Origin: Octopus vulgaris | Taxonomy: Eukaryota | Direction: 5' to 3' | NCBI GenBank assembly: GCA_951406725.2 | Contig: OX597830.1 | Coordinates: forward strand, 56,110,001-56,174,000 | Length of the DNA: 64,000 bases | In this document: positions 17,796-52,452 of the stretch, one piece after another | Numbering within the stretch: position 1 is the stretch's first letter | How the letters are laid out: every line of letters begins with the position of its first letter | Translations under genes and position numbers: made by a program | The notes under the pieces: generated by a model | What the model was told of the DNA's origin: nothing | Databases searched by the model: none | The model's input: only the letters and a program-made list of their open reading frames with translations

Positions 17796-18321
17796 GTCTA
17801 CAGAAAAGAAAAAGACAACAAATTGATTAACCAACAAACCTCTAAGAAATCAACAGATTTGAAACATTTTGTCATTTAACTTTAACACAATTATAGGTAC
17901 AGACATGGGTATGTGGGTAAGAAGCTTGCTTCCCAACTGCATGGTTTCAGGTTCAGTTCCACTGCATCATCTAGGGCAGGTGTCTTCTTTATTTCATTCA
18001 GAAGTGAATTTGCATTCAATTGAAATTCAGGACCCAGGATGAGATTTTAGCTTGTCACATTCATACAAACTGTAGAGAGTGGTTAGTAGTCTTGTATCTT
18101 AACCTCACAATCATTGAGTTTTCAATATATCAATGTACAGGCATGACATGTAGGCTTGCGTTTAATCCTACTGCACGACGTCTAAGATACGTGTCTTCTA
18201 TTATAGCCCCAGGCTTATCAAAGTCTTGTGAATGAGATAATCTATGTGGAAGTCCACTGTGTGTGTGTATGTGCATGCATGTGTGTGTGTGTACGTATGT
18301 ATGTATGTGTATATATATATA

Positions 18322-18725
18322 CATTCTCTCATATTTCACTCTCTCCCTCTCAAACCTTGAACAACCATCATACACTATCTTCCTCCAACCATCACGGTCT
18401 TGTGCCTCCCTCTTCCAATTACCAGCTGCAATTCCTATCTGTATTAGAGCATTTTTAAGGCAATCCTTAAACCTTAGTTTAGGCATATGTGCTGGTCTCT
18501 TGCCATCTTCCAGCTCATCATACAATGGCTGCTTGGGCAGTCGCTCATCACTTATCCTTACCAAATGCCCCCCCCCCCTCAAACGTCTTTGCAAAATCAT
18601 TGACTCTATACTTCTACTGCCACTCCTCTCAAGCACCTCCACATTACTAATGGCCATTTTCCAGTTTATCCCCCAAATTTTTCTCAGACGGTATTGATGA
18701 AATAGTTCTAATTGCCTTATCTGCC
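18322..18725 (-). mobile_element. RTE/BovB-like LINE C-terminal fragment
   Basis: LELFHQYRLRKI..SIESMILQRRLR..GHLVR..RLPK..PKLRFKDCLK. Confidence 0.85.
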
Positions 18726-18727
18726 TG

Positions 18728-19047
18728 CGGTCATGAATGACCATGGTATTGCACCTATAAAGTTACCCTCCAACAAGTCCGGGCAAGGCTGCTTATGGAA
18801 GACCAGCAGTCACCCATGCATACCAGCCTCCCTCTCCATGCCACCAGTGTTATCCAAGGGAAAGGCAAAAGCTGAAACAGCTTGGCACCTGTGACATTGC
18901 AACTCCTTTCTACAGCTAAGTGAACTGAAGCAACGTGAAATAAAGTGTCTTGCTCAAGAACACAACACACAGTCCGGTTCGGGAATTGAACTCACAACCT
19001 CACGATCGTAAGCTTAACGCCCTAATCACTGAGCCATGTGCCTTCAC
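18728..19047 (-). mobile_element. tRNA-derived SINE (second copy at about 3289-3615, minus)
   Basis: Minus-strand head ggcacatggctcagtgattagg..gagttcaattccc; body shared with 3300-3600. Confidence 0.75.
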
Positions 19048-19554: not shown

Positions 19555-21264
19555 ATGGCAATGAGTACACTAAAGAATTCAGGGTAGAGGTAGGGGTCCA
19601 CCAGGGTTCAGTCCTCAGCCCCCTCCTATTTATCATAGTCCTCCAGGCAATAACGGAGGAATACAAGACAGGATGCCCCTGGGAACTCCTCTATGCTGAT
19701 GACCTTGCTCTAATTGCTGAGTCACTATCAGAACTAGAGGAGAAGTTTCAAGTGTGGAGACAAGGATTAGAATTGAAGGGCCTTAGAGTCAACCTAGCTA
19801 AAACCAAAGTCCTAATAAGTAGGAAGGCAGGCAAGCCACAAATCCCTTCAGGTTGATGGCCCTGCTCGATCTGTAGTAGAGGCATAGGTAGAAACTCTAT
19901 AAGATGTACCCAGTGTAAGCTATGGACACATAAGAGGTGCAGCAATATCAAAGGAAGGCTAACTGGGAAGATAGTTTTTGTATGTGGCAGATGCTCGGGA
20001 GCAATAAACTCTGAAAATGTGCAGAGAGCAACTTCCGCCATATTCCAGGGAGGAAAACTAGAAGTAGTTGATAGCTTCCGTTACCTAGCTGACAAAGTTA
20101 GTAGCGGAGGAGGGTGCACTGAAAGTGTAGCTGCTAGAATAAGAATAGCTTGGGCAAAGTTCAGAGAGCTCTTACCTCTGCAGGTGACAAAGGGCCAGTC
20201 GCTCAGAGTAAAAGGTAGACTGTATGATGCATGTGTACGAACAGCCATGCTACATAGCAGTGAAACATAGGCCATGACTGCTGAGGACATGCATAAGCTC
20301 GCAAAGAATAAAGTCAGTATGATCCGATGGATGTGTAATGTCAGTGTGAATACTCAACAGAGTGTAAATACCTTGAGAGAAATGTTGGATCTAAGAAGCA
20401 TTGGATTGGTGTGCAAAAGAGACGACTGCACTGGTATGGTCATGTGGCGTGAATGGATGAGGATAGCTGTGTGAAAAAGTGTCACACCCTAGCGGTTGAG
20501 GGAACCTGTGGAAGAGGTAGACCCAGGAAGACCTGGGATGAAATAGTGAAGCACGACCTTCGAACTTCAGGCCTCACCAAGGAAATGACTAGCGACCGAG
20601 ACTTTTGTAAATATGCCAAATGAGACCATAATCTTGTGGCCTATGCCAGGGGCATAACCAGTCCACTTATGCATATCTTTTCCTTCTTTGGACACTAAAA
20701 CTCTGCTTGCGAAGACCTGTTGAGGCAAGTGAAATCAAAATCAAATTTGATGACTGGCGTCCATGCTAGCAGGGTGCAAATAGCACCATATGAGTGTGAT
20801 CATAGACAGAGCGGTTAACTGGCTTCCGTGCCAATGACACTTAAAAGGCACCATTCAAGTGTGATCGTTACCAGCGTCGCCTTACTAGCACCCGAGTCCC
20901 GTGCTAGTAGGGTATTAAGAGCACCATCTGAGCGTGATCGTTGCCAGAGCGGCTATCTGGCCTCCGTGCCGGTGGCATGTAAAAGACATTATTCGAGCGT
21001 GATCGTTACCAGCATCGCCTTACTGGCACCTGTGCCGGTGGCATGTGTAAAAGATTCGAGCGAGGTCGTTGCCAGTACTGCCTGACTGGCCCCGTGCTGG
21101 TGGCACGTAAAAGCACCCACTACACTCTCGGAGTGGTTGGCGTTAGGAAGGGCATCCAGCTGTAGAAACTCTGCCAAATCAAGATTGGAGCCTGGTGCAG
21201 CCCTCAGTCAAAATCGTCCAACCCATGCTAGCATGGAAAGCGGACGTTACATGATGATGATGAT
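19555..21264 (+). mobile_element. 5'-truncated RTE-clade LINE: RT core with inserted PHD finger, C-terminus, tandem-repeat 3' UTR and (GAT)n tail
   Basis: VGVHQGSVLSPLLF, LLYADDL, VVDSFRYL and RIRIAWAKFRELLP motifs; in-frame stops at 19854 and 20268; 3' end ...ccatgctagcatggaaagcggacgtt-(gat)n. Confidence 0.92.
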
Positions 21265-29460: not shown

Positions 29461-30659
29461 TATATTATTACTTGATTGAACGTCACGCATCCATTTCCAA
29501 GTATATATATATATATATATATATATATACTTGACTACCTATGACCTGTTGGGTCACCGAAAAAGTTTCCCAGCAATGGAGTTTTGTTTTGTGGGGTTTT
29601 TTTCCTTTTCCAGGTTATTTCACATGCTTTCAAAGAATGTGACATCGAAATCACGCATAGACGGCTCCTTTGAAAGATTTGGCTGTTATTTCTTGCACGT
29701 CCTGCTACTATGTAACAGGTATTTTGAGTCCTTTATCACAAATAGCTGTTACATGGTAGCAGGGCGTACTAGAAATAGCAGCTGAATCTTTGGCAGTGGG
29801 ATATGTTGAATGCACTTGACAAAATCCTCTGGAAAAAAAATATATTTCACAACAAGGTTATGAATAGGTCTTTTACGAAATATTTACCGTATTTTTAAAG
29901 TCGTTTTCACTTAAAAATATTTTTTGAATATGCCAAAAAATTTTTGTAATGGTATTTGCTTGAAAATGATTTTAAAAAAATATTAAAATATTGTCTGTTT
30001 AAAGAAAGCTAAAATATAAATACTTACTGTACAAACAACTTACATTTTTGAAATCACATTCACTTAGAAATATTTCTAAATGATTAAAATATTGTGTTTA
30101 ACAAAAGTGAAAATAGAAACATTTACTGTAAGAAACAATTCGTATTTTTTTGTTAAGTTTAATTTGGGAATATTTTCCCATTTTGCACCATTTTGGGTAT
30201 TTATACCCCGAAAACCCTTATCTTCACAGCCACTTGTTTCATTTATGTGAAATTTGTTTTATTCCGTTCGTATTTACATTTCAGAGGTAACTTAATTCAT
30301 AGTATTTTCTGCACTATGTGCCAGTTTGGCTGGGTAACATTGCAAGCAAGCAAGATTCAAGCTGACTTTTAACATATTGTAGATTTATATATATATATAT
30401 ATATATATGGAGGAGCACCAAAATCTTTTATGTGTTTAGGGCTTCTATGGGCTTTAATCTGGCCCTGATGAGAGAGATGTGCACACTGACAATTTTACAT
30501 CCAATGAAGCCTTCTTGCTTTGTCTTTCTAGTCTTCACAGGTCCTCTGCATTTAGAGTCCATGTTCCTCTACCCTGTAACATTACTGTTCATAAACAAGA
30601 GTTATACGATCTGCCTTTCACTTAGAGAGAAGCCTTTTGTTACCAACAGAGGTTATAGC

Positions 30660-31024
30660 AAAGAATTTTGCCAACATAACATGGCAGTCCTGGTTTAGAA
30701 CGAATGTTGCTGTAATTTTGTCCCAGGCGACATCATCTCCAGCTGGCTATACGACACGATTTGTGTCCTTTATATTTTTGAACAAGGGACTCTAGCACCC
30801 CCACTCAGCTCAAAACAATATCTGTGTATCGCGATTTCCGGGTTGTTTCCCTTCATCAGCACAGAATAATCGTTTGGCTAGAGGTGTCACTGCCAAATTC
30901 CCATATATAAGGACACAAATCATGTTGTATAGCCAGCTGGAGACGATGTCTCCTGGGGCTAAATTACAGTAACATTCATCCTAAACCAGGACTGCTATGT
31001 TATGTTGGCAAACAATCTTTACTC
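30660..31024 (-). mobile_element. Foldback element (~110-bp inverted arms) carrying a hammerhead motif; Penelope-like derivative
   Basis: Arms at about 30667-30775 and 30905-31024 are reverse complements; same family as 51871-52420. Confidence 0.7.
30821..30865 (-). ncRNA. Candidate minimal type-I hammerhead ribozyme
   Basis: Minus strand reads TCTGTG-CTGATGA-A-GGG-AAACAA-CCC-G-GAAA-TCGCGA-TA-CACAGA: stem I, CUGAUGA core, stem II, GAAA, palindromic stem III, NUH site. The base of stem II is an A.G mismatch. Confidence 0.65.
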
Positions 31025-31465
31025 TAAAGTACTGTTGCTGAATATCTCTCGTTGTGAGATTTACAAATAGTAATTTTCTAATTTATAGAGGTTATAGCTC
31101 TCTGAACTTTCTTCACTCTGTTCTTTCCCCATCTGTCATGCTTTGAGGATATATACCACTGCTAATTAGGTCAACATCCTCTTGTGCCTCTCCCACATAC
31201 AAATACACCTTTCTCTTTTTACCTGTATATAATTACATTTCACCTATTGTGTGTCCATAGTTTGCATTGGATTCACCATATTGAATTTCTACTGGCTTCT
31301 TTTTTTATATACTGAGCAAAGCCATTTCCCTGATGGTAACAGGGTCTTGTCTGTTTTCTAGCTAATATTTTAACCCTTGCCAAGTTAACATTGAGGCCCT
31401 TTGATTAGAGGTTTTGCTTCTATATCTGGAATTTCTTCTGTAATAGCTCCTGTAGATTCAGCTAT

Positions 31466-33844: not shown

Positions 33845-34960
33845 TGACGGGTAAATTGCCTAGTTTGGATGGTCTACCCTATGAGCTTTACATTTACATG
33901 CCAGATTATTTTGGCGACCTCTTAGCATTTACTGTAACCAGCAACAGAATGAGAGAATTCCCAGTTTTGTGAACCAAGGAGCAGTGGTGTTGCTGAAGAA
34001 AGACCCAAACAAGGGGTATTTTATTGACAACTGTTAAATGCAGGGTTCAAAATTTTGGCCAAGGTGTTAGCTACAACATTGGTGCTTGTCGTCAGGGATC
34101 TGGTAGGGGAGGCACAGACATACGTCATCATGAAAAGATCCATCCATGACAACCTCTACCTCATGCAATACATCATTGAGAAAGTGGCTAAAGAACCTGG
34201 CATGGGTGGGGTCCTGATCAATTTAGATCAGTCTAAAGCTTTCAATAGGGTCAACCATCTATACCTCAAGATAGCTAGTTTTGGGCCTGTATTAAAGGGC
34301 TGGATCACTGCAATGCACATCAACATCTGTTCAGTGGTCAGAGTGAACAGTCACCTCTCAGAACCGTTCAACATCATGCGCTTGGTCCGATAAAGTTGCC
34401 CCCTCTCGTCTCTCTTGTATGTACTGACTCTTGAGCCACTACTACACAAACTGGAGGCATTGAGGGGTATCCCATGTGACCAAAGATGTGGGAGATGCGT
34501 GTTGGCATGTGCTGATGATGTCACCATAGTGGTGTTAGATCATAAACACATAGAAATGATCAACCCTGCTCTCAGAGACTATGAGGTGGTTTCAGGAGTA
34601 ATGATTAACCAGGAAAAATCAGTAAGCTTGCGGATCAGCACCTGGAGAAGCAAGTGCATGCCATCCGACTGTGTTGTTGGATGCTGGACGGACAGACCGG
34701 TTAAATTGCTCAGGGTCTGGCTCAGTCTTGACCTCCAGATGGACAAAAACTGGGATGAAGTAACGAGCGGGGTTGACTACTTTCATCTAGAAATGGGCTG
34801 AGAGAAAGCTATCCCTGAAAGGTCAGGCAGTGGTGACTAACGTGTATATCATGTCCATCATCCACTATTGCTTGACTCTCGTGCCTTGTTCTGAGCACTG
34901 TCCGATTATACTGGAGCATAAACTCTTCCACTTCTTGTAGAAGGGACAGGTCCTGACAGT
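33845..34960 (+). mobile_element. Decayed L1/Tx1-clade LINE reverse transcriptase fragment
   Basis: GLDGLPYELY, RSIHDNL, NLDQSKAFNRVNH, LTLEPLL and CADDVT motifs, with stops and frameshifts. Confidence 0.85.
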
Positions 34961-47147: not shown

Positions 47148-47600
47148 ATTGTGCGAAGTCCTCGAGTGAAACATTGCCGCCTCTGTGTGACATGCTTCCA
47201 AAATATGGACCATCATTGCCTCTTTCTGCTGAAGTGTGTTGCGAAGAATAACCACACATTGTTTGTGTGGTTTCTTATTTGCTGTGCAGCCAGTCTGAGT
47301 TTCTTCCTCCTCACTGCATTACTCTATTGTATTAATGTTTACAAAGACTTCACCGTTCTTGAAACGGTCGTCATACTGATACGGAGCAACATCTGGATCT
47401 TGACCCTCTCCACCATGGATCTCTTCTCCCTCGCTTGGATTCTCACGTTGATCCGATTCCAGTTTATCATAGTTTCTCAAGGGAACACTACATATTTCCA
47501 AAAATCTGACAGTGTTTTGACATCCACTGAAAAGCTGTTGAACATTGCATATTTCTTACAAGGAAAGCAGCCGTTCGCATCGGATCCCTTTGCAGCATAA
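47148..47600 (+). CDS. Ankyrin-DHHC exon 9, DHHC cysteine-rich domain, last transmembrane helices and stop (CDS total 1713 nt, 570 aa)
   Basis: RxKHCxxCxxCxxxxDHHC motif; two further transmembrane helices; TAA at 47598-47600; summed exon lengths are divisible by 3. Confidence 0.95.
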   Translation: MVRSPRVKHCRLCVTCFQNMDHHCLFLLKCVAKNNHTLFVWFLICCAASLSFFLLTALLYCINVYKDFTVLETVVILIRSNIWILTLSTMDLFSLAWILTLIRFQFIIVSQGNTTYFQKSDSVLTSTEKLLNIAYFLQGKQPFASDPFAA

Positions 47601-49555: not shown

Positions 49556-50232
49556 TCATCATCATCATCATTGTTCGACCGTGGTCGAGACAATAGAATT
49601 TACCATGCTACACCAGACTTCACGGTCCATCATGGCATTACGGAGGTCCTGTTGCTGGATGCCTGTATCCCTGGAGATTACATCAAGGTAGGAGAGTGTG
49701 CGCCCTCTGGCATTGCGAGTAGATGGCTTCCAGAGGAGAAGAGTAGAAATTACCTCTTTTTCAGCTTTACAACAATGTCCAGCAAACTGGACTCTCCTAC
49801 CTTTCACAAGAGATGACACAGGTGGTAGTTTCCCATATATTTGCATTTTGGTTGGATGGTGCTTCCACGAGAGATTTTGAGCTCTCATAAGGAGGCGAGT
49901 GTAGGTTCCATCCAACCACCTCTCAAGCTTCTTTGATAACGTCCAGGTTTCTGAGCCATATAGTAGAATTGGTTCGACTGTGGCTTTGAAGATTTCAAGT
50001 TTGAAGTCTCTACTTAAATTTGATGACCAGATCTTATGCATGTCATTACAGGCTGACTAGGCCATACCCTTTCTAGTTCGAAAGTCTTTTCCAGATGATG
50101 ATATGTATGACCCAAGATAGTTGTAATCAGAAACCATATTTAAGGGCGCATTGTTGAGAGTATGGATGATGCAATCACTGTTGGACAGGCACTTGCTTAT
50201 GTATTCAGTCTTGGCCTCATTGAGGTAAAGAC
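49556..50232 (-). mobile_element. RTE-like LINE 3' fragment with (gat)n tail
   Basis: IFKATVEPILLYGSETW..DGTYTRLL..VQFAGHC. Confidence 0.85.
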
Positions 50233-50634: not shown

Positions 50635-51870
50635 TATATAACTACCTCTCCCTTAAAAAAAATCCTGCTGATTTTCTTTGTGTTAACTTCATCATCTTCA
50701 GGTCTCCTTTGGTGAAACGTTCAGTCTGCAGTAAATCAGAATAAAATTGATCTACTGACCATGACTTGGTGGAAGTTCCATTTTATTTTGATATCTGTGC
50801 ATCTTCTTATTTTTATTTTTCTCTTGAAGGGCAACTTTATCCTTCTTGGATGATGGATAATTCACAGCATAAACATCAACCTCATTATCACCATCAACAT
50901 CAACATCCGTTTCTCATACATGTATACTTACAAACACAACATAAACACACTCACACATACAAACAACACACACACACATATATATATACATACACATATA
51001 TATATACACATACATGCATACATATACATCTGTGTATCTATACCTCAGTGTCATTGTTTGTTTCACAGAAAACAAAAAGGAACAAAAAATACACATCATA
51101 TTTGTGTGTGCTTCAAATATTTACATGATTTTCATCATTACAGCTCGTTATTTCTCATTACTTCTCATTAAACTTTCTCTTTATTTCAAATTTTATTTCA
51201 TTTTTCTCCTTTGTAAAAAAAAAAAAAATGAAATGGAAAAAAAAATTCTGTAAAAAATCTAGTAATGATTAGTATTGTTATTTTTTATTATTATTATTAA
51301 TATTATTAATAATAATATATATAAAAATTTATTTTGTTTAATTGAGATTATAATCCTGTATCTAAGCTTATCCCATTTAGCTGAAACATTTTGTGATAAT
51401 ATGGTTTTCTTGGGGTTTATTTTTTTAATGTGAAAAGCTACTTTTATGTGATGAGTAAAATTTGTTATTTTTATTGTCTGAAAGGAAAAGAAATGATATC
51501 GTCCATTGTTGTTAAGGTTTGTGTGTGTGTGTATGTGTGTGTGTTATTTTTTTCCCACATTGCTTTTTGCTATATTAAAAATACAGATGAGGACTTTTCA
51601 TTCAAGTTTTTTTATATTTTTTCATTTTTATTCTTTACATCTTTTTTTTTTTTTCGTTTTGGGAATTTCAATTTGAGTAAACTGATATGGTTTTATCAAT
51701 TGAAATTTTTGAAAATGACTATTCAGGAGGAAAAAAAAATTGGAAATTATTTAATAAAGTTTAAACTTGAATAAAATTCAGTGAAAAAGAAAAAAATATC
51801 CTGAAGTTATTTTATTAGAAAATTACTATTTGTAAGTCTCACAACGTGAGATATTCAGCAATAGTACTTT

Positions 51871-52420
51871 GGAGTAAAGATTGTTTGCCAACATAACATG
51901 GCAGTCCTGGTTTAGGATGAATGTTGCTGTAATTTAGCCTCAGGAGACATCGTCACCAGCTGGCTATACGACACGATCTGTGTCCTTATATATTCGAACA
52001 AGGGAATGTAGCACCCCCACTCAGCTCAAAACAATATCTGTGAAATCAAAGGGTTTGAAGCCACCACACACCTTGACCCACGCGTGGAGCACAGTGGCTG
52101 CTGCGACGGCCCATATGCGTTGGTCTCAGTCTAATATTTGCATTGGTCGTAGTGCAAAAATATTGACTGAGACCGACGCATACGACCCGTTGCAGCAGCC
52201 ACCGCATGCGGGTCAAGGCATGCGGCAGCTTCACGCCCTTTGATTTCACAGATGTTGTTTTGAGCTGAGTGGGGGTGCTAAAGATTCCCTTGTTCGAAAA
52301 TATAAGAACACCAATCGTGTTGTATAGCCAGCTGGAGATGATGTCTCCTGGGGCTAAATTACAGCAACATTTGTCCTAAACCAGGACTGCCATGTTATGT
52401 TGGCAAACAATCTTTACTCC
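51871..52420. repeat. ~550-bp near-perfect palindrome (foldback element)
   Basis: Outer arms 51871-52042 / 52247-52420; the inner GC-rich segment is also self-complementary, apex near 52147. Confidence 0.9.
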
Positions 52421-52421
52421 A

Positions 52422-52452
<31 letters not shown>

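Follow-up and report, generated by a model that had tools for sequence, protein, structure and literature searches.

An octopus retrozyme-like repeat with mirrored 18S rRNA joined at the predicted hammerhead cleavage site of one fold-back copy

Introduction

The closest described systems to the locus presented here are Penelope-like elements (PLEs) and the animal retrozymes, which a 2026 preprint treats, in its accessible text, as PLE derivatives (10.64898/2026.07.22.740005). According to the available parts of the PLE literature, insertions are laid out as an inverted copy plus a tail (PMC8557442), there are two start sites for the reverse transcriptase (RT), with both strands nicked and extended (PMC11167929), and PLE hammerheads include a U3-A8 core and a dimer design (PMC4209133). 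RtcB is described, in sections of two further papers, as circularising retrozyme monomers (PMC7229834) and as joining a 2',3'-cyclic phosphate to a 5'-OH in U6/L1 chimeras (PMC6789731). Cutting by PLE hammerheads in vivo and the origin of the inverted ends of PLEs are both stated to be open in the portions available (PMC4209133; PMC8557442), and the accessible text of PMC11167929 reports that no reads were found at the cut site.

Here, I describe a fold-back in a 64,000-nt window of Octopus vulgaris DNA (the whole stretch that was analysed; coordinates without a locus name refer to it), together with its repeat family and the 18S rRNA at its centre. The element is of a known kind, with one unusual copy and one useful mechanistic statistic.

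Results

The palindrome at 51871-52420 folded computationally into one hairpin of -439 kcal/mol, and its arms matched the copy of the same element near 30.7 kb at ~90%, in agreement with the initial annotation. The annotation was likewise right that homology to that copy stops at the predicted cleavage nucleotide: the arms end at CTGTG (52042, left) and CACAG (52247, right), in both cases the base after the predicted hammerhead cut. The fold-back is a single insertion, 51814-52421, whose left end lies at 51814 and not at 51871, and which is asymmetric, with a left arm of 229 nt and an inverted right arm of 173 nt. Its parts are as follows:

51814..52042, minus strand: long arm, monomer nt 1-229 (RNA sense), from the predicted cleavage site at CACAG to the distal fixed 3' end
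52247..52421, plus strand: short arm, monomer nt 1-173, with its terminus at the proximal fixed 3' end
52043..52141, minus strand (sense): 18S rRNA nt 374-475, butt-joined to CACAG, 82% identity
52140..52246, plus strand (sense): 18S rRNA nt 360-475, identical CACAG junction, 78% identity
52140..52141, no strand: 2-nt GC overlap at the centre, shared by the 18S pieces ending at nt 360 and 374
51808..51815, plus strand: left copy of an 8-bp flanking duplication (TATTTTAT), weak, sharing 2 nt with the element end
52424..52431, plus strand: right copy of the duplication, running into a (TA)n tract

The long arm, which includes a ~55-nt tail, and the short arm showed 96% and 95% identity to the family majority sequence, respectively. 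Each arm carried 4 non-CpG changes over 163 sites, and it is only the independent decay of the arms that speaks against an assembly artefact. The 8-bp duplication is AT-rich and could be a chance match. About 4.2 kb from the insertion, the window contains a DHHC palmitoyltransferase exon (47148-47597, plus strand; Pfam PF01529, E 1e-20), and it also holds what I take to be decayed LINE-like coding fragments at 34028-34798 (plus), 49571-50056 (minus), 18133-18762 (minus), and 19857-20267 (plus).

Searching the genome with the arm returned 3322 candidates, of which 40 were scored. Tandem copies gave a monomer of 352 nt with stops in all six frames, making the repeat non-coding, and head-to-tail monomers were present in L050 and other loci. 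Neighbouring monomers at L050:1151-1850 differed at 2/350 bases and shared some twelve differences from the family majority, a pattern implying one template or a recent local duplication as the probable source. A second insertion of the family lies in the window, bounded by an exact 12-bp flanking duplication, and carries the hammerhead:

30657..31082, no strand: second insertion of the same family, with a short arm containing the hammerhead (30657-30902, minus) and a long arm (30905-31082, plus)
30822..30864, minus strand: minimal type I hammerhead (CUGAUGA ... GAAA, palindromic helix III), predicted cut between 30827 and 30826

Each unit comprises CUGAUGA, a short helix II, GAAA, and a palindromic helix III, and folds as a dimer; the core motif was found in every L050 unit. 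The base of helix II is a non-canonical A-G, and no Rfam hammerhead family matched the window at the gathering score, or L050, L026, and L215 at E values up to 5. A sister family (2724 candidates, 362-nt monomer, ~64% alike to the 352-nt family) covaries with it, as C3-G8 is replaced by U3-A8, helix I is changed, and helix III is a different palindrome, with compensatory changes in helices I and III. The sister family is younger (~97% between copies), has a similar tail of ~52 nt, and is found at L215:1-285, L254-L283, and L021/L024, and a further relative lies at L234:5620-5819. Judged by sequence, the 352-nt repeat would be a non-LTR retrozyme with PLE-type insertion, for which cleavage and circles are predicted.

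At the centre of the fold-back, the initial annotation had seen an unrelated GC-rich palindrome in place of the ribozyme. The palindrome does replace the ribozyme, but it is not unrelated, as it consists of mirrored 18S rRNA nt 360-475. Used as a query in the genome search, the core matched rDNA on both strands, and the reference rDNA loci L005 and L013 match Rfam RF01960 at ~987 bits; the captured stretch sits in an expanded variable region near the 18S 5' end. Changes were found at 14/36 and 10/37 CpG positions of the core and at 1/63 and 6/69 of the others; most of the divergence of the core from 18S is CpG decay, in line with the arms. Both the family assignment and the 18S identity of the core can be stated with high confidence.

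The junction between 18S and repeat is blunt, with 0-nt microhomology (the next base in 18S would be T, and the base ahead of the repeat is A), and in each arm 18S and repeat share one orientation, giving the sense-oriented, blunt donor-acceptor junction seen in RtcB-made chimeric retrocopies. A CGAT word common to 18S and repeat lies one base off the junction. No 18S was found in the flanks of the insertion, and the combination of core and arm was seen at 51814-52421 only among 37 candidates scored. This copy was also the only one with an rDNA spacer among head-to-head pairs (1/128), spacers longer than 30 nt being present in 4/128. In my judgement, the junction probably marks a ribozyme-made end. 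The same join could instead be a coincidence, in which RT working on uncut, circular, or randomly broken RNA switched to 18S with the help of CGAT. In its favour, the copy was selected post hoc, a break rate of ~1% per base applies throughout, the sister family has no excess at its site, and 5/152 aligned copies have T instead of A just ahead of the site, so that the word in common would be longer in them. However, 18S is matched up to and including nt 475 and the repeat takes over at +1 without overlap, and a homology route needs an A-to-T change and an extra T before the arms were copied, and I consider such a coincidence unlikely.

The initial annotation had proposed that the mobilised RNA begins where it has cleaved itself, and had named a sharp truncation peak at CACAG beforehand as the test. 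Arms were sampled at 90 of the first 100 places (contigs C1-C10) among 222 exact 3'-side anchor matches, with 2 duplicates dropped, and 167 arm segments were mapped. Their 5' ends were diffuse, with 1 lying exactly at +1 and 8 within -3 to +4. Among the 145 arms with canonical 3' ends, 63 read through the site, 20 were longer than one monomer, and 1 started at the site, and instead of the predicted peak the break rate was ~1% per base and flat on either side. Cleavage therefore sets no 5' end as a general rule in the 352-nt family. Several breaks cluster at monomer nt -7 to -13, in palindromic helix III, where the cDNA may pair with itself.

Across the genome, an exact +1 to +18 is present in 826 copies, and 13/826 break at +1 as judged from the listed matches (8/10 plus 5/6, with the 51814-52421 copy included and one ambiguous), compared with 1 clear break and 1 internal deletion among 5 matches at control position +9. 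The 13 breaks amount to a 1.4- to 4-fold excess over background (p = 0.14 or 5e-5, depending on the baseline), and several carry 2-5 nt of microhomology; the sister family breaks at its own site in 1/257. A hairpin element whose 5' end is set by self-cleavage throughout the family has the 51814-52421 copy and this weak +1 excess (13 against 1-2 at +9) in its favour, yet given the read-through arms, the single start at the site, and the sister family count, I regard it as very improbable. The flat truncation profile and the read-through arms therefore show a family that is not ribozyme-delimited, while the retrozyme/Penelope-type character that had been suggested with it was borne out by fixed 3' ends, 8-16 bp duplications, and tandems. 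The read-through suggests that the templates were mostly circular or uncut RNA, two states that genome data do not separate.

In contrast to the diffuse 5' ends, the 3' ends were sharp, with 48 at 168-178 and 76 at 222-233 (124/167 arm ends); these two narrow windows resemble the two RT start sites in the available text of PMC11167929. The ~228 end was paired with the ~173 end in 84/112 simple two-arm copies, a set that includes loci selected near +1, and duplications of 7-16 bp were present in ~61/84 long/short copies (score of at least 6; my own count, without a shuffle control). The flanking duplications were 8-16 bp and variable, tandem monomers and single-arm copies exist, and inner ends vary widely. 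Long inverted arms would also be expected of an ordinary MITE with terminal inverted repeats and a DNA transposase. Here, however, the arms end at 173 and 228, respectively, the inner ends vary, the duplications are uniform in neither length nor sequence, and some copies are tandem monomers or single arms, so that a MITE is scarcely credible and the preference of the initial annotation for another kind of element held on the grounds of asymmetric ends and variable duplications.

The arms were also compared for how far they extend in the 5' direction. The short arm reached further 5' in 37/47 unselected long/short copies (p = 1e-4), with an excess of 2-45 nt in 19 copies as against 2 the opposite way, and 10/47 ran against the snap-back direction. 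The 51814-52421 copy lies at the mode, its short arm reaching further 5' by 14 nt. This geometry favours snap-back of the 173-primed cDNA, and the two identical arm junctions are probably one event copied rather than two: given the short-arm bias and the 14-nt offset, both junctions of the 51814-52421 copy probably derive from one cDNA. Twin priming on one ligated RNA had been favoured first for the shared junction and was dropped in view of the short-arm bias. Arms of one copy shared derived changes at 58/14231 sites (0.0041, compared with 0.0015 in random pairs), which does not separate snap-back from twin priming. Of the two routes to a fold-back named in the initial annotation, snap-back fits the arm geometry (37/47). 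In the open-licence literature searched, without supplements, no report of PLE snap-back or of a short-arm bias was found.

Dispersed 18S fragments were examined at 26 further places, ten rDNA-like loci (L005-L013, L018) being excluded and one place having no match. Twelve of these fragments end within 18S nt 415-716, and 7/12 end at 461-478 (one by eye; p = 3e-5 with a rough correction for a window chosen afterwards), while a pattern search added one more ending at 18S nt 475; the enders at 461-478 are L003, L017, L023, L024, L026, L246, L247, and L253. The recurrent end suggests that the host 18S rRNA is readily cut by a nuclease within its expanded variable region. Another repeat had a recurring start within ~35 nt after 8/15 dispersed 18S fragments, joined in the same sense at L003:1590, L017:1588, L247:~1430, L024:1602, L026:1602, L243:~1340, L246:1343, and L248:1438. 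From the recurrent end and these repeat neighbours it follows that a recurrent 18S 3' end has repeatedly been caught by retroelements. L003, L017, and L247 have one short 3' module with an A tail in common; they may form a small SINE family headed by 18S, or each may be a chimera of independent origin. Several of the neighbours presumably resemble tRNA-derived SINE heads, and the SINE and LINE labels used for them are likewise my assumption.

These joins bear on how 18S came to sit at the cut. The RNA could have been cut without any ligation, with RT at the ribozyme-made 5' end jumping to the 3' end of a free 18S fragment, followed by snap-back. A blunt same-sense junction fits this equally well, and it is what the 8/15 fragments that precede other repeat starts within ~35 nt would suggest; 5'-triphosphate ends, as in tRNA-derived SINE heads, would be no substrates for RtcB, which also counts in favour of a jump. 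Template switching is, moreover, the alternative stated for rRNA/L1 chimeras in the accessible text of 10.1101/2025.02.02.635956. On the other hand, the flanking repeats may have inserted later into AT-rich ends, they are the work of other enzymes, and hammerhead chemistry yields exactly the 5'-OH that RtcB uses in the available parts of PMC6789731 and PMC7229834. I consider an RT jump a real possibility, held with some doubt; ligation and jumping are nearly as likely as each other and inseparable on genome data.

Elements encoding RT and GIY-YIG are abundant (6136 candidates, 150 scored, with Pfam support). The linkage to a full PLE RT/GIY-YIG ORF that the initial annotation had named as a check did not appear at the termini examined: none of 30 loci and 10 longer stretches (3 overlapping), out of 150 listed matches, had a match to the monomer. 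The 352-nt monomer contains no RT+GIY-YIG ORF and is thus not an autonomous PLE. Matches of 64% near GIY-YIG loci (L215, L234) were considered as a link to a partner and rejected, as they are separate insertions of sister repeats. A young, abundant PLE was observed at L227:906-4587 and L228-L231, with a 781-aa RT+GIY-YIG frame and a separate upstream ORF of up to ~480 aa; a motif scan of the ends of this family (L227-L231) gave no type I hammerhead, and its ends had no match to the 352-nt monomer.

Three RNA-seq runs of organism C, each sampled at about 6 in 100, gave 1561, 1252, and 1179 reads on the family. Together with one contig set, these reads showed equal depth in both directions and no pile-up of starts or ends, in libraries that were fragmented and are uninformative on cleavage, and they fit circles or embedded tandem copies alike. 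A-to-I editing was considered and rejected: A>G and T>C changes were at ~25%, but C>G and C>T were at an equal level, and the reads may come from other copies.

Discussion

A hammerhead cut leaves a 5'-OH. In the chain of events that I tentatively propose for the 51814-52421 copy, (1) the hammerhead would have cut in vivo, leaving such an end at CACAG, and (2) that end, rather than being used to close the monomer into a circle, would have been attached by an RtcB-type ligase to a piece of 18S whose last base is nt 475. (3) Both strands would then have been nicked by a Penelope-like RT/GIY-YIG protein supplied in trans, with priming at monomer nt ~173 and ~228. (4) Synthesis of the 173-primed cDNA would have continued past the junction as far as 18S nt 360; this cDNA would have folded back on GC at 52140-52141, where priming is predicted and where a 12-nt loop of 18S nt 362-373 would remain, and copied itself. 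(5) Its union with the 228-primed cDNA would, I infer, have produced the long arm together with the tail. Most copies read through the site because their templates would be circular or uncut RNA.

I place the complete chain, from self-cut and ligation to 18S through to fold-back of the cDNA, somewhat short of an even chance. Its junction is blunt, in the same sense, and with 0-nt microhomology, 18S is absent from the flanks, background breaks run at only ~1% per base, and the hammerhead covaries with the sister family. The donor end recurs (7/12 18S fragments at 461-478), and the two fixed 3' ends (124/167), which are like the RT starts in the accessible text of PMC11167929, and the short-arm bias (37/47) fit the later steps. 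Against this, it is a single case (1/128 pairs), chosen in the initial annotation for lying at the site; the family-wide +1 excess is weak, with 1/257 in the sister family; the A-G at the base of helix II comes with no Rfam hammerhead match; and the CGAT word lies one base off the junction. The 8/15 18S fragments abutting other repeats point to template jumping, 10/47 copies are against snap-back, and no partner ORF was found in the termini examined. The anole PLE did not require cleavage in vitro, and none of the reads started at the site, according to the part of PMC11167929 available.

Read most broadly, the insertion would be a fossil in which a PLE hammerhead cut in vivo, RtcB acted on the cut end, mis-ligation to 18S caught the circle-closing intermediate, and the short-arm bias would reveal snap-back of the proximal-primed cDNA as the origin of PLE inverted ends; I find this reading attractive but doubtful, and on balance somewhat unlikely. 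With its thousands of candidate copies, the protein-free family offers a countable record of PLE-type insertion, in which cleavage rarely leaves a 5' end in DNA and the arm bias is as snap-back predicts. One copy has caught foreign RNA at the predicted scissile bond, which is suggestive and not proof, in a family that is itself of the expected kind, and three mechanistic steps become directly testable in vitro.

Capture of rRNA at the cut of a hammerhead was nowhere reported in the open-licence literature searched, without supplements; the supplements of PMC4209133 and PMC11167929, which may list mollusc hammerheads or insertion ends, lie outside that scope. The 352-nt family resembles the metazoan non-LTR retrozymes, as far as the accessible accounts describe them (PMC7229834; 10.64898/2026.07.22.740005), in its ~350-nt non-coding monomer, which lies within their 150-450 nt range, its head-to-tail units with a single type I hammerhead each, its low GC, flanking duplications of more than 4 bp, and a proposed PLE origin. 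It differs from them in consisting mostly of sub-monomer inverted pairs and in that its circular RNA and cleavage are predicted. The available text of these accounts contained no rRNA capture, and that of PMC7229834 does not use the words 'octopus' or 'cephalopod'.

With insertions of EN+ PLEs, as described in the accessible parts of PMC8557442, PMC11167929, and PMC4209133, the family has in common partial tandems, an inverted 5'-truncated copy, a tail at one end, two fixed start sites, and a minimal hammerhead with a palindromic helix III and a U3-A8 variant. Unlike these elements, it has no ORF, its tail is ~55 nt as compared with 30-40 nt, and no matching autonomous pLTR was found; the short-arm snap-back bias is absent from those parts of the EN+ PLE descriptions. 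The 51814-52421 copy is also like the U6/L1 and rRNA/L1 chimeras (PMC6789731; 10.1101/2025.02.02.635956, each in its available text), where RtcB ligation or a template switch has placed a fragment of cellular RNA, in sense orientation, on the 5' side of a retroelement, and fragment ends recur. It departs from both kinds of chimera in that the donor is 18S, the acceptor end is the predicted ribozyme cut and not a variable truncation, and the chimera is mirrored.
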